64,000 bases of DNA from Pristiophorus japonicus (taxonomy: Eukaryota): positions 12,524,001 to 12,588,000 of the forward strand of contig NC_091977.1 of assembly GCF_044704955.1 (NCBI RefSeq), in the 5' to 3' direction. How positions within the stretch are numbered: position 1 is the stretch's first letter; each line of letters starts with the position of its first letter. The translations under genes were made by a program, and so were the position numbers. Below are positions 18,076 to 58,985 of this stretch, piece after piece. The notes beneath the pieces were generated by a model, which saw only the letters and a program-made list of their open reading frames with translations, did not search any database and was not told the DNA's origin.

Positions 18076-18149
18076 GGATGTCTAAGTACATACAGTGTAA
18101 GATAAAGAAAAAAAGGAAGGCTTATGACAGATACCGAGGGCTTAATACT

Positions 18150-24799: not shown

Positions 24800-25165
24800 A
24801 GGAATCGAATGCAGTACTGAGGGAGTGCTGCACTGTCAGAGATGCCGTATTTCAGATGAGTCGGTAAACCAAGGCCACATCTGCCCTCCTGGTAGATGTA
24901 AAAATCCCACAGCGCTTTCATAAGAAGAGCAGGGGAGTTTTTCCCAGTGTCGTGGGCCAATATTTATCCCTCAACCAACATCACTAAAAAGCACATTATT
25001 TGATCATTTATTTTTGGTCATTGCTGTTTGTGGGAGCTTGCTGTGCGCAATTTTGGTTGTCGTGTTTCCTACATTACCACAGTGAGTACACTACAAAAGT
25101 AATTCATTGGTTGTAAGGCGCTTTGGGACATCCTGAGGTCGTGAAAGGCGCTATATAAATGCAAA
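24800..25165 (+). mobile_element. Deu-domain SINE (SacSINE/AmnSINE-like), 5'-truncated
   Basis: Core ATTGCTGTTTGTGGGAGCTTGCTGTGCGCAA and tail GGCGCTATATAAATGCAA; paralogous to 58463-58915. Confidence 0.75.
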
Positions 25166-26054
25166 TTAATCGTTTCTTGCACTGAGACTATTCTGAGATT
25201 CAGTAATTAAAAAGCCAATGACACAAAAATGAAATTACAAACTGATCTGAAGGGAAAGTCTTGTCTCCCATTTAAACCCAGAGAGTCCGATCCCCTTTGA
25301 TCGTGGGCAGGAGACAGCAGTAAATTCAGTGTTGTGCAGTCAGCTCAGCCGATGGGATTAATGCTGAATTCTGAATGACAAGGTCACAAGAAGACCGACA
25401 TATTCAGTGGTCTGAGCTTCCTGATGGCTTCCCTCGGTGTTCTGATTCCAATCTGGAGTTTGGCAGCTCAAACTTTTCAACATTTCATTTATTAAACCTG
25501 CTCCCAGTCCATTACAGCCCAGAAACATGCCTTTTGGCCCAACAGGTCGATGCCGGTGTTTATGCTCTGCACGAGCCTCTTCATCTCACCCTATCTGCAT
25601 GTCCTTCTATTCCTTCCTCCCTCATGTGTATATCTAGCTTCCCCTTAAATGCATCTGTGCTATTCACCCCAACTGTTCCTTGTAAAGGGAATTGGGTAAA
25701 TACTTGAAGGGGAAACAATTGCAGGGCTATGGTGAAAGGGCAGGGTGCGGGATTAATTGGATAACTCTTTACAAGAGCCAGCACAGGCTCGATGGGCTAA
25801 ATGGCCTCCTTCTGTGCTGTAAGATTAAATCATTCTATGATTTGATAGGTGGAATGGCTGAAATTCTGATCTAAATTTAACACTGCGGTAAGTGTGATGT
25901 CAATGGACTGAAAATCTCCAAGTCACTCAGCAAGCGAGTGTAGAATTTACCAATATCTCGCAAAGATTCCGGGTACCTTTCCCCTGTAGAGGAGAAGAAT
26001 CCTTTTCTGGGCTTTTAAAATGAGTTTAAAGGGGCAGACGAGGCCTGCGGGGGA

Positions 26055-27363
26055 TAAAAGGGGATGCATTCATGGAGACCCCCCCCCCCAGTGTTTGGAC
26101 TCATAGGAAAGGGAATTCAAAATGGAGCTAAATTACAGAAGCTTGAGATCCCCTAAACATCTGTGGGAAGGAGCATATCAATTTTAAGATTCTACAACAT
26201 TTTGGCTGCGAAAAAGAGTTACCAAATATAGGAGGTGGGGCCAACGTCTGAAGCAAATTCTTGTATTAAGGATCCCAGGCTATTCACCCCCTAAGAGATA
26301 ATCGAATTACCCAATCAAGCACAATGTAAATCATGGTCAGGAAACTGGACAATCCTAAAACAATGCAAACCCAGTGATAGCACATTCTCACACCCTAATC
26401 GAGTTACTGCTGACAAAGGAGACATTTGAAAATCAATGGACAGAACAGTTTAAACAGAGCCCAAGAGATTTGATGGGAGATAACGGAGCCTTTTTTTGGG
26501 GGGATATATCTATCCCCCAGTTTTTACAAGAAAAAGGTAGCAGAACACAGACTGGAACTCGCACAGACTTGAACACAGACAGAAACAAGCAGCTGGAGCT
26601 GGGGAGTGAAGAAATGGAGTAGTGAAGGAAACTACAAGAAATCGTCAAGGACCGACCGAGCACGAGGCCCACGAAATGGAAGGTTGTCAGGAACCAAATT
26701 GACAACCACTCTACAATCTACTTCTGAACGATCCAGCGGGGGAGAAATTACCAAAAAGGACTAAATAAAACTAAAACCAAAGAAAGTGGGTACTTACCCC
26801 ATACATCCAAAACGCAACTTACCGCATCAACGGACGCACCCCAACCGAAGACTACGCAGTCCGAAGTCCTCTCCTCCGTCCAGGGTACGGCTCACCTAGA
26901 AGGCCAAGTGCAGCGAACCCCGAAACCGCGATTCACCGGCAGCTGTCTAAAGGGATTGGTGAGCATAACCCCTGAACCCTCAGAGCTATAACTTAGTTAG
27001 TTAGGGGAATTGGGAGGGGGGAGGCTGGGATAACTTGTGTAAATGTATCTGCATTCTCCTTTTTACCCCATTTAGAGTTTAAGCTGTATTCTTTTCCCCA
27101 CAGGCTGTAATTTGACATTTTATTCAATGTGTTGTACCCCTCAGTGTGTATTGGTCTGTGTGTGTTATTAAAGGTGTGCCTTTTACTTCTTTTTAAACAC
27201 AATAAAGCCATACCTGCTTCCTACCTTGAAACCGATTGTCTGTCCAAGTCTGTCACAGTCCTTTCATAATTCCAGTGTCTAGAACCAAGGGTGTGGGAGC
27301 GATTCGGAACCGCTCATATAAGGTCAGAAGGGAAAGCTGACCCCCTGCAAACCACCCCTTACA
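26055..27363 (+). mobile_element. Large (about 1.3 kb) solo-LTR-like element, copy A
   Basis: Collinear similarity to 31738-33152 at both ends and internally. It ends ACCACCCCTTACA, has AATAAA at 27201 and no coding capacity. The left boundary is approximate. Confidence 0.6.
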
Positions 27364-27699
27364 GGAGACACAGTCCAGACATTAAACTCGGAAACAGACT
27401 AAAGTCAGCGAACACAAGCCACTCTGTCACTTCTGTTCCTGTGGTCTGTGTTTCGGTATCACTCAGGAAGTGTGGGAGAACCTCAAACCCAGATATCTTT
27501 GAACTTCCAAACCATCATGTTTAGGGTTGAGTTTGATGTCAACCTTCAGATACTTGCTCCGTAGAGCTGGTTTATAGACTGTCTCTGCAGAATGCACAAA
27601 TACAGTATGTTGTGTGTCTCTCTGAAATAACAAATAAATGCAGTGAAATACACAGAATTGGTGACAGAGTTTTTTATTCGTTTATGTAGACGTCGCCGG

Positions 27700-28035
27700 T
27701 TTTTATTGCCCATCCCCAATGGCCCTTGAGAAGGTGGTGGTGAGCCGCCATTTCAGAGGGCAGTTAAGAGTCAACCACATTGCTGTGGGTCTGGAGTCAC
27801 ATACAGGCCAGACCGGGTAAGGGCGGCAGATTTCCTTCCCGAAAGGACATTAGTGAACCAGATGGGTTTTTAGACAATCCGGTAGTTTCATGGTCACCAT
27901 TACTGACACTTGCTTTTTATTCCAGGTATTTTTAATTAACTGCCAGCTGCCATGATAGGATTTGAACTCACATCTCCAGATCATTAGCCAGGCCTCTGGA
28001 TTACTCGTCCACCAATATAACCACTATACTACCGT
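27700..28035 (-). mobile_element. Short interspersed repeat (SINE or LINE 3' derived)
   Basis: A near-identical block lies at 33760-34035 (AGAGTCAACCACATTGCTGTGGGTCTGGAGTCACAT). Related tails lie at about 34060-34155 and 47400-47495. Confidence 0.65.
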
Positions 28036-28379
28036 ACCTGGTAAGTTATGGTAAGTTATCTTTGATCTTCCAAGACACCATATTATGGGTTGAGTTTGGT
28101 GTCAACCTTCAGACACTGGCTCTGCAAAATGCACAAATACAGTATGTTGTGTGTTTCTCTGAAATAAGAAATAAAGGTGGGGAAATACGACAGCATCTGT
28201 AAAGGGAAATGGTTGATGTTTTGGGTAGAGACCCTGTCTCAGAGCTGCCAATCAGAAGATAGACCAGCCCCATTATAGAACTTTGATTTATACAACACCT
28301 TTCACAACCTCAGAACATCCCAAAACATTTCATAGCTAACGAGGTACTTTTGAAGTGTTGTCACTGTTGTAATGTAAGA

Positions 28380-30670
28380 AACATAGAAACATAGAAAATA
28401 GGTGCAGGAGTAGGCCATTCGGCCCTTCGAGCCTGCACCGCCATTCAATAAGATCATGGCTGATCATTCACCTCAGTACTCCTTTCCTGCTTTCTCCCCA
28501 TACCCCTTGATCTCTTTAGCCGTAAGGGCCTTATCTAACTCCCTCTTGAATATATCCAATGAACTGGCATCAACAACTCTCTGTGGCAGGGAATTCCACA
28601 GGTTAACAACTCTCTGAGTGAAGAAGTTTCTCCTCATCTCAGTCCTAAATGGCCTACCCCTTATCCTAAGACTATGTCCCCTGGTTCTGGATTTCCCCAA
28701 CATCGGGAACATTCTTCCTGCATCTAACCTGTCCAGTCCCGTCAGAATCTTATACGTTTCTATGAGATCCCCTCTCATCCTTCTAAACTCTAGTGAATAA
28801 TAAGGTTCTCTGTAAATCAAGTTTTAGGAGGTTACACCAGTGGGCCGTCCGGTAACATTGCTCACAGTGAATTGTGGGGAACTACTTTTATAATGACAGA
28901 ATTATCAGGTCACAAACATTATTTTCAGTACTAAGTTTCTCAGCTAGCACGAGTTCCAGATGACCGACAAGAAGATTGCCAATAAGGATTTGAAGTGATT
29001 TGATTGAACATAAGAACATAAGAAATAGAAACAGGATTAGACCATTTGGCCCCTCGAGCCTGTTCCACCATTTAATAAAATAATGGCTGATCTGATCATG
29101 GACTCAGCTCCACTTCCCTGCCCGCTCCCAATAACCCTTTATTCCCTTATTGCTCAAAAATCTGTCTCTCTCCGCCTTAAATATATTCAATGACCCAGCC
29201 TCCACAGCTCTCTGGGGCAGAGAGTTCCACAGATTTACAACCCTCTGAGAGAAGAAATTCCTCCTCATCTCAGATTTAAATGGGCAGCCCCTTATTCTGA
29301 GACTATTCCCCCTAGTTCTAGTTTCCCCTATAAGTGGAAATATTCTCTCTGCATCCACTTTGTTGAACCCCCTTATTATCTTAAATGTTTCGATAAGATC
29401 ACCTCTCGTCCTCTGAACTCCAATGAGTACAGGCCCAACCTACTCAACCTATTTTCATAAATCAAACCCCTCATTGCCGGAATCAAACTACTGAACCTTC
29501 TCCGAACTGCCTCCAATGCAAGTATACCCTTCCTTAAATACGGAGACCAAAACTGTACGCAGTACTCGAGATGTGGCCTCACCAATACCCTGTACAGTTG
29601 GAGCAGGACTTCTCTGCTTTTATACTCTATCCCCTTTTTCAATAAAGGCCAACTTTCCATTTGCCTTCCTGATTACTTGCTGTACCTGCATACTAACTTT
29701 TTCTGTTTCATGCACAAGGACCCCTAGGTCCCTCTGTACTGCAGCACTTTGCAATTTTTCTCCATTTAAATAATAATTTGCTTTTCTATTTTTCTGCCAA
29801 AGTGGATAACCTCACATTTTACCACATTATACTCCATCTGCCAAATTTTTGCCCACTCACTTAACCTGTCTATATCCCTTTGCAGATTTTTTGTGTCCAC
29901 CTCACAATTTGCTTTCCCACCCATCTTTGTATCATCAGCAAACTTGGCTACATTACACTCGGTCCCTTCATCCAAGTCATTAACATAGATTGTAAATAGT
30001 TGAGGCCCCAGCACCGATCCCTGCCGCACCCCACTAGTTACTGTTTGCCAACTTGGAAAAAGACCCATTTATCCCGACTCTTTGATTTCTGTTAGTTAGC
30101 CAATCCTCAATCCATGCTAATATATTGCCCTCATCCCCATGAACTTTAATCTTGTGCAGTAACCTATTATGTGGCACCTTATCGAATGCCTTCTGGAAAT
30201 CCAAATACACCACATCCACTGGTTCCCCCTTATCCACCCTGCTCATTACAGCCTCAAAGAATTTCACCAAATTTGTCAAACATGATTTCCCGTTCATAAA
30301 ACCATGCTGTCTCTGCTTGTCTGAATTATCTTTTTCCAAATGTCCTGCTACTGCTTCCTTAAAAATGGACTCCAGCATTTCATCAACAACAGATGTTAAG
30401 CTAACTGGTCTATAGTTTCCTGCTTTCTGTCTGCCTCCTTTTTTAAATAGGGGCGTTACATTTGCGGTTTTCCAATCCGCTGGGACCTCCCCAGAATCCA
30501 GGGAACTTTGATAGATTACAACCAATGCATCCACTATCTCTGCAGCCACTTCTTTTAAGACCCTGGCATGCAAGTCATCAGGTCCAGGGGACTTGTCCAA
30601 CTTTAGTCCCATTATTTTACTGAGTACTACTTCTTTTGTGATAGTGATTGTTTTTAGTTCCTCCCTCCCT
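28380..30670 (-). mobile_element. Two CR1 LINE 3' fragments (28380-28800 and 29007-30670)
   Basis: (ATAGAAAC)n and (ATAAGAAC)n tails; RT motifs KFADDTK and [13 protein letters not shown]. Confidence 0.9.
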
Positions 30671-30967
30671 ATTGGTTACACGCCTCCTCCTTGCTATTGG
30701 TTACTGAAGCTGTCGTGTTGTGATTGGAAATTCTATTAGAATGATCATTCTCATTCCTTGTTGCTCTCTCATGTCGGACGCATTCTGTTCCCGTTCAGCT
30801 GTGATTTCTTGCTCTTCCATCAATGTGAAGTCTGAGCCAATCAGGTGTGAGTGAGTAAAGTGTTCCTTATTAAGCCGACATCTTGCTATAACTTCCTGTT
30901 ACAAAGCCCCTGAAACTAACCTTGTGAAATTCCCGAGCTTACCAAAAAAGCTACAGTCACTCTTCAA

Positions 30968-30981
30968 CCACTAGATGGCAG
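30968..30981 (+). promoter_or_regulatory. Candidate CTCF site
   Basis: CCACTAGATGGCAG matches the vertebrate CTCF core and lies in non-repeat DNA. Confidence 0.5.
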
Positions 30982-31371
30982 TGTGCCATCATCTATTATC
31001 CAACATCTATCCCTCTCTGAATCTATTTAATTGTCTATTTGTATAGATTTACCTTTCCCCCCCCAATCATTGTAAGGTCTAACACAGGCACCAGCAGCAT
31101 AAAGTAGAGGGAAGTCTTCCCCTGGCAAACTCCAACCATTTGTGCGCCAACTCCATTTATCTGACCTTGTTTCCGTTGGTCGCAGGAGGTGCTCACACAT
31201 CTTTCAGCCGTCTCTGGACGTCCACATCTGGCCAGTGCATTAGGCACTCCATCCGTCCTTCACCCTTTGCTCCACAATGGATGCCGTCATGCCAAGACCC
31301 CACTTAATCTAGCACGGTCAGCAGGCCAGTCCATCAGTGTGGAAGCCCCAGCAAGTGCCTTGATCATCGGA

Positions 31372-33389
31372 CAAAGAGTAATCGCAAAGGCTAATGGAAT
31401 GTTGGTCTTTATCTCAAAGGGGCTGGATTACAAAGGGGAGGGAGTGATGCTTCAGTTGTACACAACCGTGGAATACTGCACTCAGTGTTGGGCACTGCCC
31501 CTTAGGAAGGATATATTGGTCTTGGAGGGGGAACAGCGCAGGTTTACCTGAATGATACCAGGGATTAAAGGGTTAAATTATTAGGACAGGTTGCATAAAC
31601 TTGGCTTGTCCTCCCCTTGCGTTTAGAAGGTTGAAAGGGGTCTAACAGATGTTTAAAATGTTAAAGAGATATCGATAGGGTAGGGAAGTTATTGCCGCTG
31701 GTGGAGGAATCCAGAACAAGGGGAAATAATCTTAAAATGTGAAGGATGCAAAATTCACGAGAACCCCCCCCCCCGCAGTGTTTGGGCTCATCTGAAAGGA
31801 AATTTAATTTGGGACTATCTACCAGAATGTTTGGAACCCTAAAGTGCTTATGGAAGAAACTACAAACTTTAATCGAATTTTGGACTTTTAAAAAGACAAA
31901 TTCAAGGCTGTGATGGGCCTAAAGAACTAGCAGGAGACAACTTGATTATTGAGTCTGTCTGGGTGTCGGGGCTAACATAACTTGTCTGGAGAAATGGGTA
32001 TTCGAGAATCTTTCTCCACAAGAGACATTAACATTACAACAAATGACCCAGAGATAGCTAACCATCAACCTGAATCTGGAAAACCGTTTCAGCATATACA
32101 TCACAAAGAGGCCCAATCCAGCCTATATGCGAAAAAACTATGCACAAAAGGACATTGCGATTACCAAGCTAATATTTCCATCAGGAAACAGTTTTAGATC
32201 AGCCCACTCGAGACATATTAACTTTTAACGAGCCCGCCAAAATATTACAAAGAAAATTCAAGCCTGCCAAATTTAAACAAAGAATTCTGAACTGATTTGG
32301 CGCAAAGATTAGAATAACTCAAACGATATAACTGGCCCCCTGTTTTAACAGAGGGTATGCCATACTACACCAGGTGCTATACTGCGAGTATGCCATCAAG
32401 AAGGGAGAGAAACCAACACGACAGTTGTAAACTAACTTCTTCAGCCTCGAAGTCCTGAAGTCCTGAAGAAAGGAAGAACATCACCACCGCGGCAGGAACC
32501 GACCACAACCAACGAAAAACCACCGCGATCGATCAGACTCGAAACAAAACTCCAACTGGAAGAAACCGAAGAATCGAAAAGTTCCCACTCCACAATCTAA
32601 GGCCTGATTACCAATAAGTGAAAACATTAGCTAAAGAGACTTTGAACCTATTTCTAACGAAGGAAACCGGGTACTTACCCCATAGATCCTAAACACGCCT
32701 TACTGCATCAGCGGACTCAACCTAACTGAAGATTGCGTAGTAAGAAGTCTTCTCTGACGTTCGGGGTACGGCAAGCAGAACCTACAGAATTCAATGAACC
32801 CCGAAATCGCAAAGTACCGCTAGCTGACCAGAAAGGATTGGTAAGTATAGTCTCTGCCTGCCCTGGAGTCTAACCTAGCTAGAATTAGCTATTGGGAGGT
32901 GGGAGGTGTAATTTTTACTGTAACCCCCGTTGAATGTGTACTGTATTGTTCTTTATTAGTGTGATTATAAGTTTGACATTGCATTTTCTTGACTGTAATA
33001 AAATCAAAGTTCTTTTGCACCAAACCAGTTGTCCTTTGCATTTTGTCACATCCCCAAATAAATCCAGAGTCCAGAACCCAAGGGAGTGGGCGTGATTCGA
33101 ACCGCTCAAGTAGGTCAGAGGTGAACCTGACCCCCGGGACCACCCCCTTACAGAAGAGGCCATTCAGGAGTGAACTCAGGGAACACCCTTTCTCACACAG
33201 GGTTGTGAAAATCCAGAAGGCTGTGGATTAATTGCAATTTTCAATACGGAGATAGATTTTTGTTGGTAAGAATATCAAGGGATATGGAGTAAAGGTGGGT
33301 AAATGGAGCTAAAACACAGATTAGCCATGATCTCATTGAATGGTGGAATAGGATCGAGGAGCTGAATGGCTTACTCTTGTTCCTATGTA
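31372..33389 (+). mobile_element. Old CR1 3' fragment interrupted by LTR-like copy B
   Basis: KANGMLVFISKGLDYK on the left; RPFRSELREHPFSHRVV and the 3' tail TTCCTATGT on the right. Confidence 0.8.
31738..33152 (+). mobile_element. Large (about 1.4 kb) solo-LTR-like element, copy B
   Basis: TGTGAAGG...CCCCTTACA termini; it splits a CR1 and has AATAAA at 32997. No clean TSD was seen. Confidence 0.65.
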
Positions 33390-34249
33390 CGGTCAACAAA
33401 CCACTCCATCAGTGTGGGAACGTGTGAAAGTGTCTCAATTGTCAACTGATTTTCCCAACAACTGGAAAATCATCCTTAGCTTGTGAGATCCTCTAAAAAA
33501 AATTGTACAGAGCTATCCAGTGAATTGCTTTTAAATACTGCATGATAACGCAACGAATTGGACTGGGGTAGGCTATTCAGCCCCTCAAACCTGCTCCGCC
33601 TTGCAATAAGATCATGGCTGATCTTCGACCTCAACTCCACTTTCCTGCACTAGCCCCATATCCCTTGATTCCCCGAGTGCCCAAGAATCTATCGATCTCA
33701 GTCTTGAATATACTCAATGACTGAGCATCATAGCCCTCTGGGTTAGAGAATTCCAAACATCCATTTCAGAGATCAGTTAAGAGTCAACCACATTGCTGTG
33801 GGTCTGGAGTCACATATAGGCCAGACCGGGTAAGGGCAGCAGATTTCCTTCTCTAAAGGACATTAGTGAACCAGATGGATTTTTATGACAATCCGATAGT
33901 TTCATGGTCACCATTACTGATCCTAGCTTTTTATTCCAGATTTATTTAATTAATTGCTGTGGTGGGATTCTGAACTCGCGTCTCTGGTTCATTAGACCAG
34001 GTCTGTGGATTACTAGCCCAGTAACATAACCACTATCCCAGCGTTCTCAGGATTGATCATTGGCTCAAGAAAGCCATCACCACCTTTCAGGGCAACTAGA
34101 GATGGGCAATAAAATCTGGCCTGACCAGAGACACCCAAATCCTGAGGATAAATCAAAAGTTATTTCAGATTTATCATGTACCAATATCATATCATGATAA
34201 AGTCCAGATATATAATTATTTGAATTTTCAGTTCAGTTCAAGTAATACT

Positions 34250-37200
34250 TAGGTAAAAAAAAGACATGAGGTTCTACAAGACAAATTTAGGGAGCTAGGA
34301 GCTAAATTAAAAAGTAGGACCTCAAAAGTAGTAATCTCAGGATTGCTACCAGTGCCACATGCTAGTCAGAGTAGGAATCGCAGGATAGCTCAGATGAATA
34401 CGTGGCTTGAGCAGTGGTGCAGCAGGGAGAGATTCAAATTCCTGGGACATTGGAACCGGTTCTGGGGGAGGTGGGACCAGTACAAACCAGACGGTCTGCA
34501 CCTGGGCAGGACCGGAACCAATATCCTAGGGGGAGTGTTTACTGGTGCTGTTGGGGAGGAGTTAAACTAATATGGCAGGGGGATGGGAACCTATGAGGGA
34601 GACAGAGGGAAGTAGAATGGGGGCAGAAGCAAACGATAGAAAGAAGAAAAGTTAAAGTGGAGGGCAGAGAAACCTAAGGCAAAAAGCAAAAAGGGCCACA
34701 TTGTAGCAAAATTCGAAAGAGGCGAAGTGTGTTAGAAAGACAAGACTGAAGGCTCTGTGCCTCAATGCGAGGAGTATTCGGAATAAGGTGGACGAATTAA
34801 CTGCGCAGAGAGCAGTTAACGGCTATGATGTAATTGGCATCACGGAGACATGGCTCCAGGGTGACCAAGGCTGGGAACTCAACATCCAGGGGTATTCAAC
34901 ATTTAGGAAGGACAGCCAGAAAGGAAAAGGAGGCGGGGTGGCATTGCTGGTTAAAGAGGAAATTAATGCAATAATAAGAAAGGACATTGGCTTGGATGAT
35001 GTGGAATTGGTATGGGTGGAGCTGCGGAATACCAAGGGGCAGAAAACGCTAGTGGGAGTTGTGTACAGACCACCAAACAATAGTAGTGAGGTTGGGGACA
35101 GCATCAAACAAGAAATTAGGGATGCATGCTGATATGGCCTTACTATACAGTATAAATTCACACAAGGCCCATACTTGAGAGAAGATCACTCTGTGACCAG
35201 TTACCTTTATTACCAAGACTTCAAGTGATGAAGGTGGGTGGAGCTTCCCCTTTTATACCTGAAAGTCCAGGTTAGGAGTGTCTCCCACAAGTTCACCCTC
35301 TTGTGGTCAATGTTCTCAAGGTGTACAACTTAGGTCAGCTTATACATGGGTTACAATGATAGTTGAATACATGACACATGCAATAAAGGTACAGCAGTTA
35401 ACATGGGTGACTTTAATCTACATATTGATTGGGCTAATCAAACTGGTAGCAATGCGGTGGAGGAGGATTTCCTGGAATGTATTAGGGATGGTTTTCGAAA
35501 CCAATATGTTGAGGAACCAACCAGGGAGCTGGCCATCCTAGACTGGGTGATGTGTAATGAGAAAGGAGAAATTAGCAATCTTGTTGTGCGGGACCCCTTG
35601 GGGAAGAGTGACCATAACATGATAGAATTCTTTGTTAGGATGGAGAGTGACACAGTTAATTCAGAAACTAGGGTCCTGAACTTAAGGAAAGGTAACTTCG
35701 ATGGTTTGAGGCATGAATTGGCTAGAATAGAATGGCAAATGAAACTTAAAGGGTTCACGGTGGATAAGCAATGGCAAACATTTAACAATCACATGGGTGA
35801 ACTTCAGCAATTGTACATCCCTGTCTGGAGTAAAAATAAAATGGGGAAGGTGGCTCAACTGTGGCAAACAAGGGAAATTAGGGATAGTGTTAAATCCAAG
35901 AAAGAGGCATATAAATTGGCCAGAAAAAGCAGTAAACCTGAGGACTGGGAGAAATTTAGAATTCAATAGAGGAGGACAAAGGGTTTAATTAAGAGGGAGA
36001 AAATAGAGTACGAGAAGAAGCTTGCAGGGAACATAAAAACTGACTGCAAAAGCTTCTATAGATATGTGAAGAGAAAAAGATTAGTGAAGACAAACGTAGG
36101 TCCCTTGCAGTCGGATTCAGGTGAACTTATAATGGGGAACAAAGAAATGGCAGACCAATTGAATGAATACTTTGGTTCTGTCTTCACGAAGGAAGACACA
36201 AATAACCTTCCGGAAGTACTAGGGGTCCGAGTGTCTAGTGAGAAGGAGGAACTGAAGGATATCCTTATTAGGCGGGAAATTGTGTTTGGGAAATTGATGG
36301 GATTGAAGGCTGATAAATCCCCAGAGCATCCAGTGCATCCCAGAGTACTTAAGGAAATGGCCCGAGAAATGATGCATTGGTGATCATTTTCCCACAGTCT
36401 ATCGACTCAGGATCAGTTCCTATGGATTGGAGGATAGCAAATGTAACACCACTTTTTAAAAAAGGAGGGAGAGTGAAAATAGGGAATTATAGACCGGTTA
36501 GCCTGACATTGGTAGTGGGGAAAATGTTGGAATCAATCATTAAGGATGAAATAGCAGCGCATTTGGAGAGCAGTGATAGGATCGGTCCAAGTCAGTGTGG
36601 ATTTATGAAGGGGTAATCATGCTTATCAAATTTTCTGGAATTTTTTGAGGATGTAACTAGCAGAGTGGACAAGGGAGAACCAGTGGATGTGGTGTATTTG
36701 GACTTTCAAAAGGCTTTTGACAAGGTCCCACACAAGAGATTAGTGTGCAAAATCAAAGCACATGGTATTGGGGGTAATATACTGACGTGGATAGAGAACT
36801 GGTTGGCAGACAGGAAGCAGAGAGTCGGGATAAACGGGTCCTTTTCAGAATGGCAGGCAGTGACTAGTGGGGTGCCGCAGGGCTCAGTGCTGGGACCCCA
36901 GCTATTTACAATATACATTAATGATTTGGATGAAGGAATTGAATGTAATATCTCCAAGTTTGCAGATGACACTAAACTGGGTGGCGGTGTGAGCTGTGAG
37001 GGGGACGCTAAGAGGCTGCAGGGTGACTTAGACAGGTTAGGTGAGTGGGCAAATGCATGGCCGATGCAGTATAATGTGGATAAATGTGAGGTTATCCACT
37101 TTGGGGGCAAAAACGCGAAGACAGAATATTATCTGAATGGTGGCAGATTAGGAAAAGGGGAGGTGCAGCGAGACCTGGGTGTCATGGTTCATCAGTCATT

Positions 37201-37876
37201 GAAAGTTGGCATACAAGTACAGCAGGCAGTGAAGAAGGCAAATGGTATGTTGGCCTTCATAGATAGGGGATTTGAGTATTGGAGCAGGGAGGTCTTACTG
37301 CAGTTGTACAGGGCTTTGGTGAGTCCTCACCTGGAATATTGTGTTCAGTTTTGGACTCCTAATCTGAGGAAGGACGCTCTTGCTATTGAGGGAGTGCAGC
37401 GAAGGTTCACCAGACTGATTCCCGGGATGGCTGGACTGACATATGAGGAGAGACTGGATCAACTGGGCCTTTATACATTGGAGTTTAGAAGGATGAGAGG
37501 GTATCTCATAGAAACATACAAGATTCTGACGGGACGGGACAGGTTAGATGCGGGTAGATTGTTCCCGATGTTGGGGAAGACCAGAACCAGGGGACAAGGG
37601 GTAGGCCATTTAGGACTGAGATGAGGAGAAACTTCTTCACTCAGAGAGTTGTTAACCTGTGGAATTCCCTGCCGCAGAGAGTTGTTGATGCCAGTTCATT
37701 GGATATATTCAAGAAGGAGTTAGATATGGCCCTTATGGCTAAAGGGATCAAGGAGTATGGAGAGAAAGCAGGAAAAGGTTACTGAGGGAATGATCAGCCA
37801 TGATCTTATTGAATGGTGGTGCAGGCTCCTAGGACGGAATGGCCTACTCCTGCACCTATTTTCTATGTTTCTATGT
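34250..37876 (+). mobile_element. CR1 LINE (end of ORF1 SGNH esterase plus decayed ORF2)
   Basis: YKPDGLHL (ORF1), IGITETW and MGDFN (EN), KFADDTK (RT), (TTTCTATG)n tail. Confidence 0.93.
35130..35376 (-). mobile_element. Gypsy solo LTR with a perfect 5-bp TSD CATGC
   Basis: TG...CA termini; CATGC at 35125-35129 and 35377-35381. It shares GAACTTGTGGGAGACACTCCT with the LTR at 2927-3184. Confidence 0.9.
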
Positions 37877-38060
37877 TATTACATTGTATCCATGTTTAGA
37901 ACATGAACTAATATGCAAGAACTTATACTGACCAACTGGTAAAAAGCAAGAAAGACTTGCATTTATATAGCGCTTTTTAAGACTCCAGACGTTCCAAGAT
38001 GCTTTGCAACCAATGAAAGATTTTTGAAGCGTAGTCACTGTTGTAATATAGAAAATGGTG

Positions 38061-38655
38061 TACTGTAGACATCTCAAGTCGCTGGAGAAATACCACCAAT
38101 GATGTCTCCGCAAGATCCTACAAATCCCCTGGGAGGACAGATGCACCAACGAAAGCGTCCTCGATCAGGTCAACATCCCCAGCATTGAAGCACTGACCAC
38201 GTTTGATCAGCTCCGCTGGGCAGGCTACATAGTCTGCATGCCAGACACGAGACTCCCAAAGCAAGCGCTCTACTCGGAATTCTTTCATGGCAAACGAGCC
38301 AAAGGTGGGCAGCAGAAACGTTACAAGGACACCCTCAAAGCCTCCCTGATAAAGTGCAACATCCCCACTGACATCTGGGAGTCCCTGGCCAAAGACCGCC
38401 CTAAGTGGAGGAAGTGCATCCGGGAGTGCTCTGAGCACCTCAAGTCTCATCATCAAGACCATGCAGAAATCAAGCGCAGACAGCGGAAAGAGTGTGCGGC
38501 AAACTAGTCCCACCCACCCCTTCCCTCAATGACTATCTGTCCCACCTGTGACAGAGACTGTGGTTCTCATCTTGGACTGTACAGCCACCTAAGAACTCAT
38601 GTTAAGAGTGGAGCAAGTCTTCCCCGATTCCGAGGGACTGCCTATGATGATGATG
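38061..38655 (+). mobile_element. RTE LINE 3' fragment with a 13-bp TSD
   Basis: ATAGAAAATGGTG at 38048-38060 and 38657-38669; (ATG)n tail. Confidence 0.92.
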
Positions 38656-38774
38656 GATAGAAAATGGTGAATAGAGATGGGTTTAATATACAAACACCAT
38701 AGGCTACAAACCTCTATACAATGGAAGTGACTGGTGTTTTGGTCCATTGGAATTATATATAATGTGATAGTATA

Positions 38775-39300
38775 AGGACCTCGATGGGGAGGCGGTCACA
38801 CAAAGGGTGATGATCATGCACTCCAACATGAGAGGTGCAATGGGAAGGATGCCCGAGAGCCTGTCGGTAGCAGTAAGGAGCATGGAGGAGTCCACTTTCC
38901 ACATTGTACAGACCTCTGTGCACACCATGGAGCTCATCATTGCCAGTGTGCAGACAACGGTAGACTCCCAGAGACCGTACAGATCCAGACCTCATGACGC
39001 GTGTCATGGGCGATGTGGCAGCTTCCATTGCAGAACAGGCGGAAACAACGCAACGTCTTGGTGCTGCATAGAGTCGATGGTTGCTTGCATGGTAGCTTAG
39101 ACTGCTCTCGTGCAGTCTCAACTTGATGCCACACAATGTCTTGGTGCTGTCTTTCAGTCTCAGCTGCATGTCTCGCAAGCTCTGACTGCTGCCATCGTCA
39201 CTGGGTCCACCAGTCAACCGGGGATCTCAGTGTCACAGCAGCCCAGCAATCTGTCCTGCAGCAGGTTGGTGGGGATGCTGAGGTGCTGGCCCGGGCGATT
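38775..39300 (+). pseudogene. Decayed coding fragment (coiled-coil-like), possibly from the Myb/SANT accessory ORF of a Harbinger-type transposon
   Basis: GC-richer segment reading DLDGEAVTQRVMIMHSNMRGAMGRMPESLSVAVRSMEES... with frameshifts. The family assignment is from recollection only. Confidence 0.3.
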
Positions 39301-42300
39301 GAACATAATAAGAACATAAGAACATAAGAATTAGGAACAGGAGTAGGCCATCTAGCCCCTCGAGCCTACTCCGCCATTCAACAAGATCATGGCTGATCTG
39401 GCCGTGGACTCAGCTCCACTTACCCGCCCGCTCCCCATAACCCTTAATTCCCTTATTGGTTAAAAATCTATCTATCTGTGACTTGAATACATTCAATGAG
39501 CTAGCCTCAACTGCTTCCTTGGGCAGAGAATTCCACAGATTCACAATCCTCTGGGAGAAGAAATTCCTTCTCAACTCGGTTTTAAATTGGCTCCCCCATA
39601 TTTTGAGGCTATGCCCCCTAGTTCTAGTCTCCCCGACCAGTGGAAACAACTTCTCTGCCTCTATCTTGTCTATCCCTTTCATTATTTAAAATGTTTCTAT
39701 AAGATCACCTCTCATCCTTCTGAACTCCGAGTAAAGACCCAGTCTACTCAATCTATCATCATAAAGTAACCTCTCATCTCCGGAATCAGCCTAGTGAATC
39801 GTCTCTGTACCCGCTCCAAAGCCAGTATATCTTTCCTTAAGTAAGGTGACCAAAACTGCACGCAGTACTCCAGGTGCGGCCTCACCAATACCCTGTACAG
39901 TTGCAGCAGGACCTCCCTGCTTTTGTACTCCATCCCTCTCGCAATGAAGGCCAACATTCCATTCGCCTTCCTGATTACCTGCTGCACCTGCAAACTAACT
40001 TTTTGGGATTCACGCACAAGGACCCCCAGGTCCCTCTGCACCGCAGCATGTTGTAATTTCTCCCCATTCAAATAATATTCCCTTTTACTGTTTTTTTTCC
40101 CAAGGTGGATGACCTCACATTTTCTGACATTGTATTCCATCTGCCAAACCTTAGCCCATTCGCTTAACCGATCTAAATCTCTTTGCAGCCTCTCTGTGTC
40201 CTCTACACAACCCGCTTTCCCACTAATCTTAGTGTCATCTGCAAATTTTATTACACTACACTCCATCCCCTCTTCCAGGTCATCTATATATATTGTAAAC
40301 AGTTGTGGTCCCAGCACCGATCCCTGTGGCACACCACTAACCACCGATTTCCAACCCGAAAAGGGCCCATTTACCCCAACTCTCTGCTTTCTGTTTGCCA
40401 GCCAATTCTCTATCCATGCTAATACATTTCCTCTGACTCCGCGTACCTTTATCTTCTGCAGTAACCCTTGTAGCACCTTATCGAATGCCTTTTGAAAATC
40501 TAAATACACCACATCCATCGGTACACCTCTATCCACCATGCTCATTATATCCTCAAAGAATTCCAGTAAATTAGTTAAACATGATTTCCCCTTCATGAAT
40601 CCATGTTGCGTCTGCTTGATTGCACTATTCCTATCTAGATGTCCCGCTATTTCTTCCTTAATGATAGCTTCAAGCATTTTCCCCACTACAGATGTTAAAC
40701 TAACCGGCCTATAGTTACCTGCCTTTTGTCTGCCACCTTTTTTAAACAGAGGCATTACATTAGCTGCTTTCCAATCCGCTGGTACCTCCCCAGAGTCCAG
40801 AGAATTTTGGTAGATTATAACGAATGCATCTGCTATAACTTCCGCCATCTCTTTTAATACCCTGGGATGCATTTCATCAGGACCAGGGGACTTGTCTACC
40901 TTGAGTCCCATTAGCCTGTCCAGCACTAAACCCCCTATTGATAGTGATTGTCTCAAGGTCCCCCCTTCCCACATTCCCGTGACCAGCAATTTTTGGCATG
41001 GTTTTTGTGTCTTCCACTTTGAAGACCGAAGCAAAATAATTGTTTCAGGTCTCAGTCATTTCCACATTTCCCATTATTAAATCCCCCTTCTCATCTTCTA
41101 AGGGACCAACATTTACTTTAGTCACTCTTTTCCGTTTTATATATCGGTAAAAGCTTTTACTATCTGTTTTTATGTTTTGCGCAATTTTACTTTCGTAATC
41201 TATCTTTTATTTCTTTATCACTTTCTTAGTCATTCTTTGCTGTCGTTTAAAATTTTCACAATCTTCTAGTTTCCCACTAACCTTGGCCACCTTATACGCA
41301 TTGGTTTTTAATTTGACACTCTCCTTTATTTCCTTAGTTATCCACGGCTGGTTATCCCTTCTCTTACCGCCCTTCTTTTTCACTGGAATATATTTTTGTT
41401 GCGCACTATGAAAGAGCTCCTTAAAAGTCCTCCACTGTTCCTCAATTGTGCCACCGTTTAGTCTGTGTTCCCAGTCTACTTTAGCCAACTCTGCCCTCAT
41501 CCCACTGTAGTCCCCTTTGTTTAAGCATAGTACGCTCGTTTGAGACACTACTTTCTCACCCTCAATCTGAATTACAAATTCAACCATACTGTGATCACTC
41601 ATTCCAAGAGGATTTTTTACTAGGAGATTGTTTATTGTTCCTGTCTCATTGCACAGGACCAGATCTAAGATAGCTTGTCCCCTTGTAGGTTCTGTAACAT
41701 ACCGTTCTAAGAAACAATCCCGTATGCATTCTATGAATTCCTCCTCAAGGCTACCCTGTGCGATTTGATTTGTACAATCAATATGTAAGTTAAAATTCCC
41801 CATGATTACTGCCGTTCCTTTTACACATGCCTCCATTATTCCCTTGATTTTTTATTGCCCGTCCCACTGTGAAGTTATTATTTGGGGGCCTATAAACTAC
41901 GCCCACCAGTGACTTTTTTCCCTTACTATCTCTAATCTCCACCCACAATGATTCAACATTTTGTTAATTGGGGCCAATATCATCTCTCACAACTGCCCTG
42001 ATATCATCCTTTATTAACAGAGCTACCCCACCTCCTTTCCCTTCTTGTCTATCTTTCCGAATTGTCAGATACCCCTGTATGTTTAATTCCCAGTCTTGGC
42101 CACCCTGCAACCACGTTTCTGTAATGGTCACCAAATCATACCCATTTGTAATGATTTGTGCCGTCAACTCATTTACTTTATTTCGAATGCTGCGTGCGTT
42201 AAGGTAGAGTGTTTTAATACTAGTTTTTAAACCATGATTTTTAGTTTTGACCCCTCCTGCAGCCCCTTTATATTCATACATATTGTCCCTTCCTATCACC

Positions 42301-45010
42301 TTGTGCTTTACACTTACCCCAGTGCTACTCTGCTCTGTTGCCTCCTGCCTTTTGCAGTCTTTCTTGAGGTCCTGTTCATCTGAGCTCTCACCCATTTTAA
42401 CTAGCTCAGAGCCCTCTCCTGGGTTCCGAATACTCCTCACATTGAGGCACAGAGCTTTCAGGCTTGCCTTTTTATTACACTTTGACCCTTTAGAATTTTG
42501 CTGTACAGTGGCCCTTTTTGTTTTTTGCCTCAGGTTTCTCTGCCCTCCACTTTTACTCATCTCCTTTCTGTCTTTTGCTTCTGTCTCCATTTTGTTTCCC
42601 TCTGTCTCCCTGCATTGGTTCCCATCCCCCTGCCATATTAGTTTAACTCCTCCCCAACAGCACTAGCAAACACTCCCCCGAGGACATTGGTTCCGGTCCT
42701 GCCCAGGTGCAGACCATCCGGTTTGTACTGGTCCCACCTCCCCCAGAACCGGTTCCAATGCCCCAGGAATTTGAATCCCTCCCTGCTGCACCACTGCTCA
42801 AGCCACGTATTCACCTGAGCTATCCTGCGATTCCTACTCTGACTAGCACGTGGCACTGGTAGCAATCCCGACATTACTACTTTTGAGGTCCTATGTTTTA
42901 ATTTAGCTCCTAGCTCCTTAAATTCGTCTCGTAGGTCCTTATCCCTTTTTTTAACCTATATCGCTGGTACCAATGTGCACCACGACAACTGGCTGTTCAC
43001 CCTCCCTTTTCAGAATGTCCTGCACCCGCTCCGAGACATCCTTGACGTTTGCACCAGTGAGGCAACATACCATCCTGGAGTCTCGGTTGTGGCCGCAGAA
43101 ATGCCTATCTATTCCCCTTACAATTGACTCCTCTATCACTATCGCTCTCCCACTCTTTTTCCTGCCCTCCTGTGCAGCAGAGCCAGCCACAGTGCCATGA
43201 ACTTGGCTGCTGTTGCCCTCCCCTGATGAGTCATCCCCCTCAACAGTACTCAAAGCGGTGTATCTGTTTTGCAGGGGGATGACCGCAGGAGACCCCTGCA
43301 CTACCTTCCTTGCACTGCTCTTCCTGCTGGTCTTCCATTCCCTATCTGGCTGTGGACCCTTCTCCTGCGGTAAGACCAACTCGCTACACGTGCTACTCAC
43401 GTCATTCTCAGCATCGTGGATGCTCCAGAGTGAATCCACCCTCAGCTCCAATTCCACAACGCGGTCCGTCAGGAGCTGGAGGCGGATACACTTCCTGCAC
43501 ACGTAGTCGTCAGGGACACCGGAAGTGTCCCTGAGTTCCCACATGGTTCAGGAGGAGCATATCATGTGACCGAGCTCTCCTGCCATGACTTAACCCTTAG
43601 ATACACTTAAATTGGCAACAACAATGCTTAAGTTTACTCACTGTTATAGAAAAGAAAAAAGAAAAACTACTCACCAATCACCAGCCAATCACTTACCCCC
43701 TTGGTTGTGACATCACCTTTCTATTTCTTTCAACTTCTTTTTTGCCTTCCCCCTGTAGCTGCACAAGCCACGCCTCTCGCTGAACTCGCGCTGCTCCTGG
43801 TCTCACTGGCCTTTTGTAGGCCCCTCCGATTCCCGGAACTCCCGCCTCTCGCTGAACTCGCGCTGCTCCTGGTCTCACTGGCCTTTTGTAGGCCCCTCCG
43901 ATCCCCGGAACTCCCGCCTCTCGCTGAACTCGCGCTGCTCCTGGTCTCACTGGCCTTTTGTAGGCCCTTCCGATCCCCGGAACTCCCGCCTCTCGCTGAA
44001 CTCGCGCTGCTCCCGGTCTCACTGGCCTTTTGTAGGCCCTTCCGATCCCCGGAACTCCCGCCTCTCGCTGAACTCGCGATGCTCCTGGTCTTACTGGCCT
44101 TTTGTAGGCCCCTCCGATCCCCGGAACTCCCACCTCTCGCTGAACTCGCGCTGCTCCCGGTCTCACTGGCCTTTTGTAGGCCCCTCCGATCCCCGGAATT
44201 CCCAGCTCTCGCTGAACTCGCGCTGCTCCTGGTCTCGCTGGCCTTTTGTAGGCCCCTCCGATCCCCAGAACTCCCGCCTCTCGCCGAACTCGCGCTGCTC
44301 CTGGTCTCGCTGGCCTTTTGTAGGCCCCTCCGATCCCCGGAACTCCCGCCTCTCGCTGAACTCGCGCTGCTCCCGGTCTCACTGGCCTTTTGTAGGCCTC
44401 TCCGATCCCCAGAACTCCCACCTCTCGCCGAACTCGCGCTGCTCCCGGTCTCACTGGCCTTTTGTAGGCCTCTCCGATCCCCGGAACTCCCACCTCTCGC
44501 CGAACTCGCGCTGCTCCTGGTCTCGCTGGCCTTTTGTAGGCCTCTCCGATCCCCAGAACTCCCGCCTCTCGCTGGACTCGTGCTGCTCCCAGTCTCTCTG
44601 GCCTTTTGTAGGCCCCTCCGATCCCCGGAACTCCCGCCTCTCGCCGAACTCGCGCTGCTCCCGGTCTCGCTGGCCTTTTGTAGGCCCCTCCAATCCCCGG
44701 AACTCCCGCCTCTCGCCGGACTCGTGCTGCTCCTGGTCTCGCTGGCCTTTTGTAGGCCTCTCCGATCCCCGGAACTCCCGCCTCTCGCCGGACTCGTGCT
44801 GCTCCTGGTCTTCATGGCCTTTTGTAGGCCTCTCCGATCCCCGGAACTCCCGCCTCTCGCCGAACTCGCACTGCTCCTGGTCTTCATGGCCTTTTGTAGG
44901 CCTCTCCGATCCCCGGAACTCCCGCCTCTCGCCGAACTCGCACTGCTCCTGGTCTTCATGGCCTTTTGTAGGTCTCTCCGATCCCCGGAACTCCCGCCTC
45001 TCGCCGACTC
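39301..45010 (-). mobile_element. Full-length CR1 LINE (5' monomer array, ORF1 zinc finger plus SGNH esterase, ORF2 EN-RT) with disabling mutations
   Basis: ORF1 YVCRKC, VVVHIGTSD, DGLHL (42638-43560); ORF2 ITETW and KFADDTK; (ATAAGAAC)n tail at 39301-39330. Confidence 0.93.
43771..45008 (-). repeat. About 17 tandem 72-bp CpG-rich monomers forming the CR1 5' end
   Basis: Period 72 (43771, 43843, ...). The minus-strand unit contains GGGGCCTACAAAAGGCC. Confidence 0.95.
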
Positions 45011-45405
45011 CTTGTATTTATACAGTACCTTTCATGACCTCAGGACGTCCCAAAGTGCTTTAGAGCCAATGAAGTATTTTTGAAGTAAAAACATAAAATG
45101 CTGGAAATCTCAGCGGGTCAGGCAGCGACTGTGGAGAGAAACAGAGTTAACGTTTCAGGTCGATGACCCTTCGATTCTGGTTCTGTTTTTATTTCAGATT
45201 CCAGCATCCGCAGTATTTTGCTTCAGTACTTTTGAAGTGTAGTTACTATTGTAATGTAGGAAACAAGGCAGCCAATTTGCACACAGCATGATCCTACAAA
45301 CAGCAATGAGATCATTCCTTTTAGTGAAATTGGTTGAGGGATAAATATTGGCCAGGGCACCAGGGAGAATTCCCCTGCTCTTCTTCGAAACAGTTCCGTG
45401 GATTT
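45011..45405 (-). mobile_element. Deu-SINE (minus) interrupted by a short Penelope/MER6-like element at about 45087-45223
   Basis: SINE core in reverse. The insert AAAATGCTGGAAATCTCAGC...CCAGCATCCGCAGTATTTTGCTT is flanked by AGTA(T/C)TTTTGAAGT duplicates; a similar piece lies at 46825-46915. Confidence 0.6.
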
Positions 45406-45558
45406 GATTTTCTATGCAGTGGCAGTGAATGAACCATTATTTACCAAACTATGATTTTTTGCTTGGATAGGGATGGGTTCGCCTGGAATCGGCTTTTATA
45501 TAACTCCTCAGTGCGAAAATCAGAACAAATTGAACAACCAAGTAGGTGCAGAACCACA

Positions 45559-45657
45559 TTTATTACAAAAGTTATCACTATCATCAATTACAAACAATAA
45601 GATCATTTAGCAATATATTTTATGTTAAAACAATTGATAACAAAAGCAAGTAATAGC
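45559..45657 (-). CDS. Candidate terminal exon of the minus-strand Siglec-15-like gene (GYYLLLLSIVLT-stop plus polyA signal)
   Basis: Acceptor tttttctgttacaatag|GC; the phase-1 frame stops at 45620. AATAAA at 45564-45559 is followed by GT/T-rich sequence. Confidence 0.35.
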
Positions 45658-46249
45658 CTATTGTAACAGAAAAATTATTCAATCTGTTCCTGAGCACTTG
45701 GACAAACATGAGCTGATCAGAGAGAGCCAGCATAGATTTGAAATGGTCGTTACAGGTCATTGCATTCCTTGCATTTCTTGAAGGGGACAATTTTGCAGGC
45801 TATGGAGAAATGGCAGGGAAGTGGGACTAATTGGATACCTCCTGCAGAGAGCCAGCACAGGCACGATGGGCCAAATGGCCTCCTTCTCTGCTGACAGGAT
45901 TGGACAGGTTAGATGCAGGAAGAATGTTCCTGATGTTGGGGTCCCAGTCTAAGGATAAGGGGTAAGCCATTTCGGACCAAGATGAGGAGAAACAACTTCT
46001 CTCAGAGAATTGTGAACCTGTGGAATTCTCTACCACAGAAAGTTGTTGAGGCCAGTCGTCAGATATATTCAAAAGGGAGTTCGATGTGGCCCTTATGACC
46101 AAAGGGATTAAGGGGGTATGGAGAGAAAGCAGGAATGGGGTACTGAAGTTGCATGATCAGCCATGATCATATTGAATGGTGGTGCAGGCTCGAAGGGCCG
46201 AATGGCCTACTCCTGCAGCTATTTTCTATGTTTCTATGTTTCTATGTTT

Positions 46250-46505: not shown

Positions 46506-46957
46506 ATGGCTCAGCTATTCATTGATTGCTGTTCGAAGGTTCTGTGGACATTTTTGCTAGTAAAACAGATGTTTGCTTACCAAATACTTATAGATATATC
46601 TCATCTTGTGTCACAAAGATCTCCGCTTGCTTTTAGAATTTCCTTTTTAATTTCACCCTTATTTCAACGACATAAGCAACACAAGGATCTAATGAATATT
46701 CATGAGCTGCAAGCTCGTAGGTTGTGGCCTTGAGGAATTAAGAAAACACTCTCCTTAACCCAATTTCAGTTTTAGACGCCTGTTCCACTCTGCCTCAGAC
46801 TGGGGTTTAGAAGTTTAGAAGTGAAATGAAAACAGAAAATGCATTTAGCTGGTCAGGGAGCATCTGCAGAGAGTGAAACAGAGTTAATATTTCAGGTCCA
46901 TGACCTTTCATCAGCACGCAGTTTGGAATTGAAGTTCAGTTACAGGCAAGTCCTTAC

Positions 46958-47343
46958 CTATTACCTGTAGACATGTTCCAGTTCTATGTTCAAACTCCTG
47001 TCCGGGCAAGTCAACTCCACACGGCAGAAGTATTGATTCGTATCATTTTTCACAAGTTTTTGTATCATTATCAACACATCATTTTTCCTTAGGTCTCCTG
47101 TCAGTCGATAGCGATTCTCTCCAGTTGGATTAGTCACATTCTGACTTATGCAGTTCTGGTGTTGGTCGACAGTTATACATTTAAAAATAGGCGGTCCAAA
47201 ACAATGCTTCTTTATCTTCCAGATGACTGTGATTCTCCCTCTATAGTCAATGTTGGGATGTGTCAACTTGCAAGACAAGATGACAGACTTTCCTTCCCAA
47301 CCGGTTACTTTCTGTGGACTTGACATTGACCATTCACTGCTGC
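46958..47343 (-). pseudogene. Siglec-15-like Ig V-set exon with a 1-nt frameshift near the G strand
   Basis: WSM..P..V..G..LSC.LTHP..Y.G.ITVIW..GP.IFKC..C..RYRL.G..RKND..D..YFCRVE follows the SIGLEC15 V-domain pattern. Branch point ctaac with acceptor cccacag|; donor ATAG|gtaagg. The exon is 386 nt (not 3n), and the G strand EFEHRTGTCLQVI is in another frame. Confidence 0.88.
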
Positions 47344-57562: not shown

Positions 57563-58102
57563 GTTTTTGTCTCCCAATCTGAGGAAGGACGTGCTTGCTA
57601 TTGAGGGAGTGCATTGAAGGTTCACCAGACTAATTCCCGGGATGGCAGGGCTGACATATGAAGAAAGACTGGATCGGCTAGGGTTATACTCACTGGAATT
57701 TAGAAGAATGAGAGGGGATCTCATAGAAACATATAAAATTATGACGGGACTGGACAGGTTAGATACAGGAAGAATGTTCCCGATGTTGGTGAAGTCCAGA
57801 ACCAGGGGTCACAGTCTAAGGATAAGGGGTAAGCCATATAGGACCGAGAGAAGGAGAAACCTCTTCACCCAGAGAGTGGTGAACCTGTGGAATTCTCTAC
57901 CACAGAAAATTGTTGAGTCCAGTTTGTTGGATATATTCAAGAGGGAGTTGGATGTGGCCCTTATGGCTAAGGGGATCGGGGGCATGGAGAGAAGGCAGGA
58001 GTGGGCTACTGAAGTTGCATGTTCAGCCATGATCATATTGAAAGGCGGTGCAGGCTTGAAGGGCCGAATGGCCGACTCCTGCACCTATTTTTTATGTTTC
58101 TA
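57563..58102 (+). mobile_element. CR1 LINE 3' fragment
   Basis: ORF 57642..58142 [17 protein letters not shown]; tail TATGTTTCTAT. Confidence 0.9.
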
Positions 58103-58174
58103 TTTGACAACACTGACAGAAAGCAAAGTTAGTGAAACATAAGTTGCTAAAATTGTTCTTTCAAATGTGCTCAC

Positions 58175-58226
58175 AGTTCCGCACTGATACCGTCAGTAAA
58201 AGAAGGTAAATGAGAGAATGTGCCAT
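58175..58226 (-). CDS. Signal-peptide exon of the minus-strand Siglec-15-like gene
   Basis: ggcATGG start; MAHSLIYLLLLTVSVRN plus T|gtgagc (52 nt, phase 1). It splices in frame to the V exon to give MAHSLIYLLLLTVSVRNCSSEWSM, and lies in a unique island among repeats. Confidence 0.72.
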
Positions 58227-58259
58227 GCCTGTCCAATTCCGTCTCAGATTTCTCCACTT

Positions 58260-58360
58260 ACTATTGGTGAAGAGGAAGTTCCAGTCAAGGCTCACGTGGC
58301 AGTGACTTTGCACATTTTACTATCTCAGCCATCACACTGAAAATACATAACAGGAAGCAC
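58260..58360 (-). promoter_or_regulatory. Candidate TATA-less myeloid-type promoter
   Basis: CCAAT (58267-58263), PU.1-type AAGAGGAAGT at 58270-58279, E-box CACGTG at 58293-58298 and ETS CAGGAAG at 58351, all within about 130 bp of the ATG. Confidence 0.5.
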
Positions 58361-58462
58361 CGATTAAATAGATGTTTCTTTCTTCAGAAAGTAAAGTTAA
58401 ATGATCAGTCCATTAAGAATCAATTTGAAACATGGGATGTACTTAATGAGTGAATATTGTGT

Positions 58463-58915
58463 TAGCCGTGTCTCAGTTGTTGGACTCTCGCCTCTGAGTC
58501 AGAAGGTGAGTGCAGGACCCATTCCAGGGACTTCAGCACTAAATCCAGGCTGACACTCCCAGTGCAGTGCTGAGGGAGTGCTGTACAGTCAGAGGTGCCA
58601 TCGTTCGGAAGAGATGTTAAACCGATGCCCCGTCTGCTCTCTCAGGTGCATGTAAAAGATCCCACGGCCACTATTTCGAAGAAGAGCAGGGGAGTTCTCC
58701 CTGGTGACCTGACCAATATTTATCCCTCAACCAACATCACTAAAAAATAAATTATCTCCTCATGTATCACTCTGCTGTTTGTGGGAGCTTGCAGTGCATA
58801 AATTGGCTTCCGCGTTTCCTACATTACAACAGTGACTGCACTTCAAAAGACGTCAATGGATGTGAAGCGTTTGGGACGTCTCAAGCTTATGAAAAGTGCT
58901 GTAAAAATGCAAATT
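58463..58915 (+). mobile_element. tRNA-derived Deu-domain SINE, near full length
   Basis: tRNA-like head AGCCGTGTCTCAGTTG..CTCTGAGTCAGAAGGT, Deu core and AAATGCAA tail. Confidence 0.78.
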
Positions 58916-58985
58916 GACTGCCGCGTTTGGTCAGTAATGTTTGCCCACTGCATGCAATCCTGTGATTTGTTCTCAATCCCACTTG

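Follow-up and report, generated by a model that had tools for sequence, protein, structure and literature searches.

The Siglec-15-like exon analysed here belongs, with high probability, to an unprocessed pseudogene that arose by segmental duplication in a birth-and-death cluster of receptor genes, and this copy most likely yields no working receptor. The exon lies in a 64,000-nucleotide stretch of Pristiophorus japonicus DNA (the window; C1:12,524,001-12,588,000, where C1 is contig NC_091977.1), and our genome searches covered the 5.9-Gb assembly. As in other unprocessed pseudogenes, introns are kept, disabling lesions are present, an intact paralog exists and the pattern of change appears neutral; against such a reading, the leader exon with its ATG and both splice sites of V1 are intact. 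A sequence-only reading of the window had offered a young pseudogene, a polymorphic null allele or a 1-bp assembly error. The pseudogene stands and the assembly error falls, while the additional loss of V2, the TM exon and the tail makes a null allele with a single lesion very unlikely.

The V1 exon and its frameshift

The exon carries the following features.

46958..47343, minus strand: V1 exon encoding a V-set domain of Siglec-15 type, 386 bp instead of 387
47201..47203, minus strand: Tyr-to-Cys change (KHCF) at the Siglec-15 Y87 position, a Neu5Ac contact; L003 and L004 have Tyr
47021..47023, minus strand: F-strand Arg codon CGT (Arg107, equivalent to Siglec-15 R143), intact
47014..47015, minus strand: 1-bp deletion right after the Glu of CRVE, causing the frameshift; seen as a gap against L003 and L004, in run contigs and in C4093
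46961..46963, minus strand: premature TAA to which the shifted frame leads, 3 nt ahead of the donor of V1, from the sequence and its translations

The acceptor AG (47345-47344) and donor GT (46957-46956) are canonical and have the same letters as in the two close paralogs of the window copy, L003 (C1 13.29 Mb) and L004 (C1 13.02 Mb), both of which have a V1 exon of 387 bp. Window V1 matches the Pfam V-set (E 1.7e-8), and its top solved relative is Siglec-15 (PDB 7zoz, E 6.8e-18), with the next family at E 2e-6; its top fold match is also Siglec-15 (E 2.2e-9, TM 0.77). Given the Pfam and 7zoz matches together with canonical splice sites, the domain is not a chance resemblance, and its identification as Siglec-15-like rather than as a non-Siglec V family is supported by both sequence and fold.

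Alignment with 7zoz pairs window Cys24, Cys55, Cys64 and Cys106 with human Siglec-15 C64, C95, C104 and C142 (numbering as in PMC10264397), so that both cysteine pairs, C64-C142 (Cys24/106) and C95-C104 (Cys55/64), are predicted to be present. The motif YFCRVE and the four SIGLEC15-type cysteines are thus intact in the alignment, as had been claimed, and Arg occupies the Arg107 position in 73 of 82 homologs (single-domain matches picked from 150 listed). The remaining Neu5Ac contacts have fared differently: the W44 equivalent is present, the equivalent of Y87, a sialic-acid contact in the simulations described in PMC10264397, is Cys, and the G strand (V150/R153/Y154/E155) is out of frame.

The frameshift itself was correctly recognized, in that a base is missing relative to L003 and L004, but it had been placed at about 47005, after LTC. 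The missing base lies between 47015 and 47014, and the interval 46995-47010 suggested for inspection of reads therefore misses the lesion. One frame reads ...YFCRVELTCPDRSLNIELEHVYR-stop, and the ORF frame does end in NIELEHVYR at a TAA (46963-46961), followed by a TAG; another frame, one base away, holds the G strand QEFEHRTGTCLQVI and the phase-1 donor, as the translations had indicated. Since LTC is already frameshifted, the Cys of LTCP is no residue of the domain. We accordingly rejected novel disulfides as an explanation of the extra cysteines, a role the earlier reading had allowed: LTCP is out-of-frame text, KHCF is a private Tyr-to-Cys point change (Cys in 0 of 82 homologs), and GTCL is a point change common to the broken paralog L004 that sits in the untranslated frame. 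Rescue by another splice donor was also discarded; the nearby AG/GTAATA is phase 2 in the shifted frame, with no downstream exon to join.

The deletion is real in the DNA at hand. Contigs of all four runs bridge it gap-free with 62-96 letters on each side and no indel listed there; they span 46943 or 46952 to 47079 or 47110, repeated in three of three runs. These are k-mer contigs from four runs of one sample, possibly the assembled animal, and bear on consensus error only. A second assembly contig, C4093, which matches the window at 98.8-98.9% in long blocks, carries the lesion exactly, and the site is not a homopolymer. The suggestion of a 1-bp assembly error is refuted by these contigs. A DNA search of the genome with the V1 lesion stretch found just four copies. 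Some run contigs differ from the window at seven exon sites. We rejected a second individual as their source, since at all seven the letter is that of L003 and L004, as collapsed paralogs would give.

Remains of the copy and its relatives in the cluster

Outside the V1 exon, the window copy and its paralogs comprise the following.

58101..58983, minus strand: 5' block, upstream region and leader, 92.7% identical to L004 and 88.9% to L003 over 620 bp
58175..58226, minus strand: leader exon with ATG, 17 codons and phase-1 GT donor, open, near-identical to the L003 and L004 leaders
46581..46623, minus strand: V2 stub, 43 bp, with in-frame TAA at 46590-46588, behind a ~1.38-kb deletion relative to L004
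45893..46248, minus strand: second deletion junction, where L004 homology jumps ~31 kb, from 13,023,985 to 13,055,207
25036..45893, minus strand: interrupted blocks colinear with DNA beyond L004 (10 blocks, 6,071 bp, mean 93.2%)
C1:13,340,794-13,236,762, minus strand: L003 gene, seven exons, 349 aa, intact, all GT-AG and in phase
C1:13,012,2xx-13,026,8xx, plus strand: L004 gene, second broken copy, frame open

The deletion that left the V2 stub took the acceptor and 314 of the 357 bp of the V2 exon. Its junction, at a GAGA microhomology ~330 bp past V1 in the intron, is exact in C4093; run contigs reach past it by 30 letters on one flank, a single letter fewer than our bridging rule asks for. 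The second deletion, with ~350 bp of repeat in between, removed the TM exon and the 3' end of the gene. No receptor exon was found in the blocks at 25036..45893, which are, by their colinearity, the putative rest of the segmental duplicate. A whole-assembly search for the TM exon gave two matches only, L003 and L004, and the three tail exons of L003 had no other match in the 664 kb of cluster DNA searched. An ATTAAA lies at 46651, 310 nt downstream of the stop, and is absent from L004; with this signal, and with the stop so close to the donor, nonsense-mediated decay could spare an unspliced message of two exons.

The genome search had 910 candidates, of which 150 were scored and gave at least 21 matches; almost all of these belong to a single C1 cluster or sit on two small contigs. 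L003 consists of a leader, V1, V2, TM and three tail exons, and its hydrophobic stretch has no charged residue. Its tail holds three Tyr motifs (TIYSIV, CTYADI and VIYATL), of which VIYATL fits the ITIM signature given in PMC7226832; neither tblastn nor a C2 profile found a C2 exon between V2 and TM. L003 V1 retains the W, Y and R, and its G strand has an F-E pair. Among the 41 matches in this genome to the Siglec-15-like query P0016, L003 ranks first. In L004 the leader donor has changed from GT to TT, the Arg has become Gly alongside three more F-strand changes, and no tail exons were found in the cluster DNA searched. Its V2 and TM exons are 98-99% like those of L003, which suggests recent conversion.

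A tree built from 59 domains, which come from exons of this genome and from 25 of 150 library proteins (five lungfish repeats dropped), joins the window copy, L003 and L004 in one clade (100/100), with branches of 0.12, 0.025 and 0.12, respectively; in flanking blocks the window copy is ~7% from its sister L004. On the 5' side of the lesion, 26 sites single out the window and four single out L003, as against four and 28 on the 3' side (Fisher p 4e-9). This fits a window/L004 sister pair with a common 3' flank and a later L003-L004 conversion that would have affected the 5' part.

The window segment is repeated at about 99% in C4015 (about 152,820) and C4093:1-80,000. In assembly contig C4015 the large deletion is present and the V1 exon and V2 stub are also gone, through a ~790-bp deletion between short imperfect repeats, a joint that the run contigs do not show. 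The large deletion thus occurs in three of three near-identical copies and the frameshift in both of those that still hold the V1 exon. C4015 and C4093 may represent haplotypes or additional tandem units; with three copies ~1% diverged, not all can be alleles of a single diploid locus. We infer that the large deletion is older than the split of these copies and the frameshift older than the C1/C4093 split. The pseudogene may be called young, as it had been, only loosely: two copies that differ by about 1.2% both have the frameshift, and ~7% separates the window copy from L004. C4093 begins with DNA nearer to a copy at 12.687 Mb, described below.

Across the cluster V1 exons (L005-L021; C1 11.2-13.3 Mb, C4015 and C4093) the F-strand Arg is variable, being kept in L003, L007, L008, L010, L012 and L013 and replaced by Gly or Leu in L004, L005, L006, L009 and L011, while V2 exons of the cluster carry His at this position and L019-L021 are V exons with an early stop. 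Two broken C2/TM pieces like the Carcharodon protein P0020 lie at C1:13,194,910-13,197,304, with no V exon in the DNA searched. The window also contains two exons on its other strand.

6063-6185 of the window, plus strand: TM exon with lysine (PLGVKLL)
6567-6623 of the window, plus strand: short tail exon

They probably form the last part of L006, a V-V gene of activating type that immediately precedes the window and has Gly in place of Arg in its V1. A second copy occurs some 157 kb further along, at C1 12.687 Mb. Long stop-free frames at window 11845-14645, 17692-18121 and 43650-45083 consist of tandem repeats, with units of ~34 and 66-69 bases by eye, and are read as minisatellites. Most of the window (e.g. 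370-2926, 49855-51552 and 59377-62439) is what we take, from motifs in its ORFs, to be decayed LINE-like and LTR-retrotransposon-like sequence.

Decay, predicted product and alternative readings

Upstream of the lesion, 16 of 329 bases are specific to the window copy when it is compared with both paralogs, 13 of them replacement and three silent changes. The expected replacement share is 80%, which the observed 13/16 fits (binomial p 1.0), and the rate of change in V1 matches that in the 5' intron (10/238; Fisher p 0.84). Over the same part of the exon dN/dS is 0.88 against L003 and 1.01 against L004. Two changes fall at conserved sites: F26L, where 76 of 82 homologs have Phe, and S90L, where 78 have Ser and none has Leu. 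The V1 changes thus look neutral, on counts that are small and, where the window is set against the L003/L004 pair, only partly assignable to the window branch. Under drift, the probability of retention is 0.91 for the Arg alone and 0.53 for the Arg plus four Cys. The kept Arg is therefore expected rather than a sign of selection, as too little divergence has accumulated to strike it.

The history that we propose would begin with segmental duplication of an L003/L004-type gene where receptors of Siglec-15 type stand in a tandem cluster. Deletions mediated by microhomology or repeats would then have set in, along with neutral decay, and gene conversion would have given rise to the patchwork similarity of the three copies. 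Any transcript would then encode a signal peptide and a V domain without its G strand. For the shifted product, an AlphaFold model from one alignment of 84 rows, read without coordinates, gives a core pLDDT of about 90, a tail at 54-58 and a pTM of 0.73, with no strand after residue 110 and neither a G nor an A' strand; for L003 V1 both strands are built (mean pLDDT 90.1, pTM 0.84). We had considered the shifted tail as a surrogate G strand, and the model builds none. The product is thus predicted to be without a G strand and to have lost most of its contacts with the sugar, and misfolding and degradation would be its likely fate.

Could the deletions instead have created a secreted single V domain, a soluble decoy with the Arg kept and the shifted tail in place of the G strand? 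The intact leader, the stop 3 nt before the donor and the downstream ATTAAA that L004 lacks would suit such a product, phmmer aligns part of the shifted tail with the TIM-3 G strand, and Leu121 falls in a conserved column. We nevertheless regard a decoy as highly improbable: the model has no strand beyond residue 110, the Y87 equivalent and all the G-strand contacts named in PMC10264397 are lost, substitutions follow a neutral pattern, and the C4015 copy has deleted the V1 exon altogether. A segregating null allele, with a working receptor at the locus in other individuals as for human SIGLEC16/SIGLEC16P, has an equally slim chance. Such alleles do occur in primate Siglec clusters, according to PMC5701461 and PMC7379906; our run data come from one sample only, and the structural differences among the three assembly copies mean that the region is polymorphic or multi-copy. 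At least four lesions, however, among them the loss of V2 and of TM, would have to separate a working allele from this copy, the large deletion and the frameshift recur in every near-identical copy able to show them, and V1 has decayed at conserved sites.

Least probable, to the point of being negligible, is a 1-bp consensus error in the assembly, for which we found nothing in favour and which would have to be shared by the contigs of all four runs that span 47014/47015 gap-free and by two agreeing assembly contigs at a site without a homopolymer, in a gene that is broken elsewhere anyway. An unprocessed pseudogene is thus the reading that we retain.

Comparison with known Siglecs

The flagged V1 exon matters little in itself, being a textbook birth-and-death casualty in which the kept Arg carries no message. 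What makes it useful is that it points to L003, an intact and apparently unannotated type of inhibitory receptor, whose V domain is the most Siglec-15-like in a genome where the cluster also holds activating-type members with a TM lysine. In mammals, the Siglec-15 domain belongs to a single DAP12-coupled receptor. We tentatively propose, at somewhat less than even chances, that intact L003 stands amid an array in which the broken copy serves as a spare, and is itself an inhibitory Siglec-15-type lectin with an ITIM/ITSM-like tail and neither C2 nor TM lysine, which keeps the Trp, Tyr, Arg and aromatic G-strand contacts for sialic acid and is located off the amniote SIGLEC15 locus; sharks would then use the Siglec-15 domain as a brake, and dead copies would trade binding-site sequence with L003 by conversion. 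Should L003 bind sialic acid, cartilaginous fish would have the Siglec-15 domain at work in a system of paired receptors. In the case of zebrafish Siglec15, binding to the glycans tested was itself weak (PMC7226832).

Siglec-15 is described in PMC10264397 and PMC7226832 as V-C2-TM with a TM lysine for DAP10/12. Window V1 has in common with it the B-F and C'-C'' Cys pairs and the W44 and R143 equivalents, by alignment, whereas the parent gene (L003) is V-V-TM with an uncharged TM and three Tyr motifs, and has neither C2 nor TM lysine. The Siglec-15 likeness therefore holds for the V domain and not for the gene: the sequence-only reading missed that the parent is V-V-TM-ITIM rather than V-C2-TM(Lys). 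The window copy has no TM in which to seek the lysine, and the hydrophobic stretch of L003 and L004 has no charged residue. Among neighbours of human SIGLEC15 listed in PMC7196488, the matches of SLC14A, ATP5F1A and IER3IP1 (EPG5 and PSTPIP2 left out) are all on C2, and the receptor cluster is on C1. Lacking C2 and TM lysine, and with these neighbours on C2, the window copy is not filed as a SIGLEC15 orthologue. In the tree, its clade with L003 and L004 joins the other V1 domains from chondrichthyans with support of 92/76 (unstarred).

Auto-annotated SIGLEC15/12-like and uncharacterised chondrichthyan proteins (for example XP_067838218, XP_041041398 and XP_042192165) have V1 and V2 domains of like type, and L005, L008 and L014-16 of the same genome group with them at high support. 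In contrast, the window/L003/L004 clade has no close relative among the listed chondrichthyan proteins (identities 35-46%), and P0009, P0013 and P0020 have a C2 domain where the L003 parent has none. Word-based protein searches (59 and 1 candidates) gave no significant relative, which is weak evidence. Within the open literature (subscription journals lie outside it), we found no paper on a shark or elasmobranch Siglec-15 cluster or SIGLEC15 synteny for this family.

Human SIGLEC16P, SIGLEC12P and SIGLEC17P, as described in PMC5701461 and PMC7379906, resemble the window copy in having a small frameshifting indel, a cluster shaped by conversion and a truncated product without TM. All three are CD33-related Siglecs, and SIGLEC16P and SIGLEC12P are single-lesion alleles that segregate with a working allele, whereas the window copy has several lesions and deleted exons.
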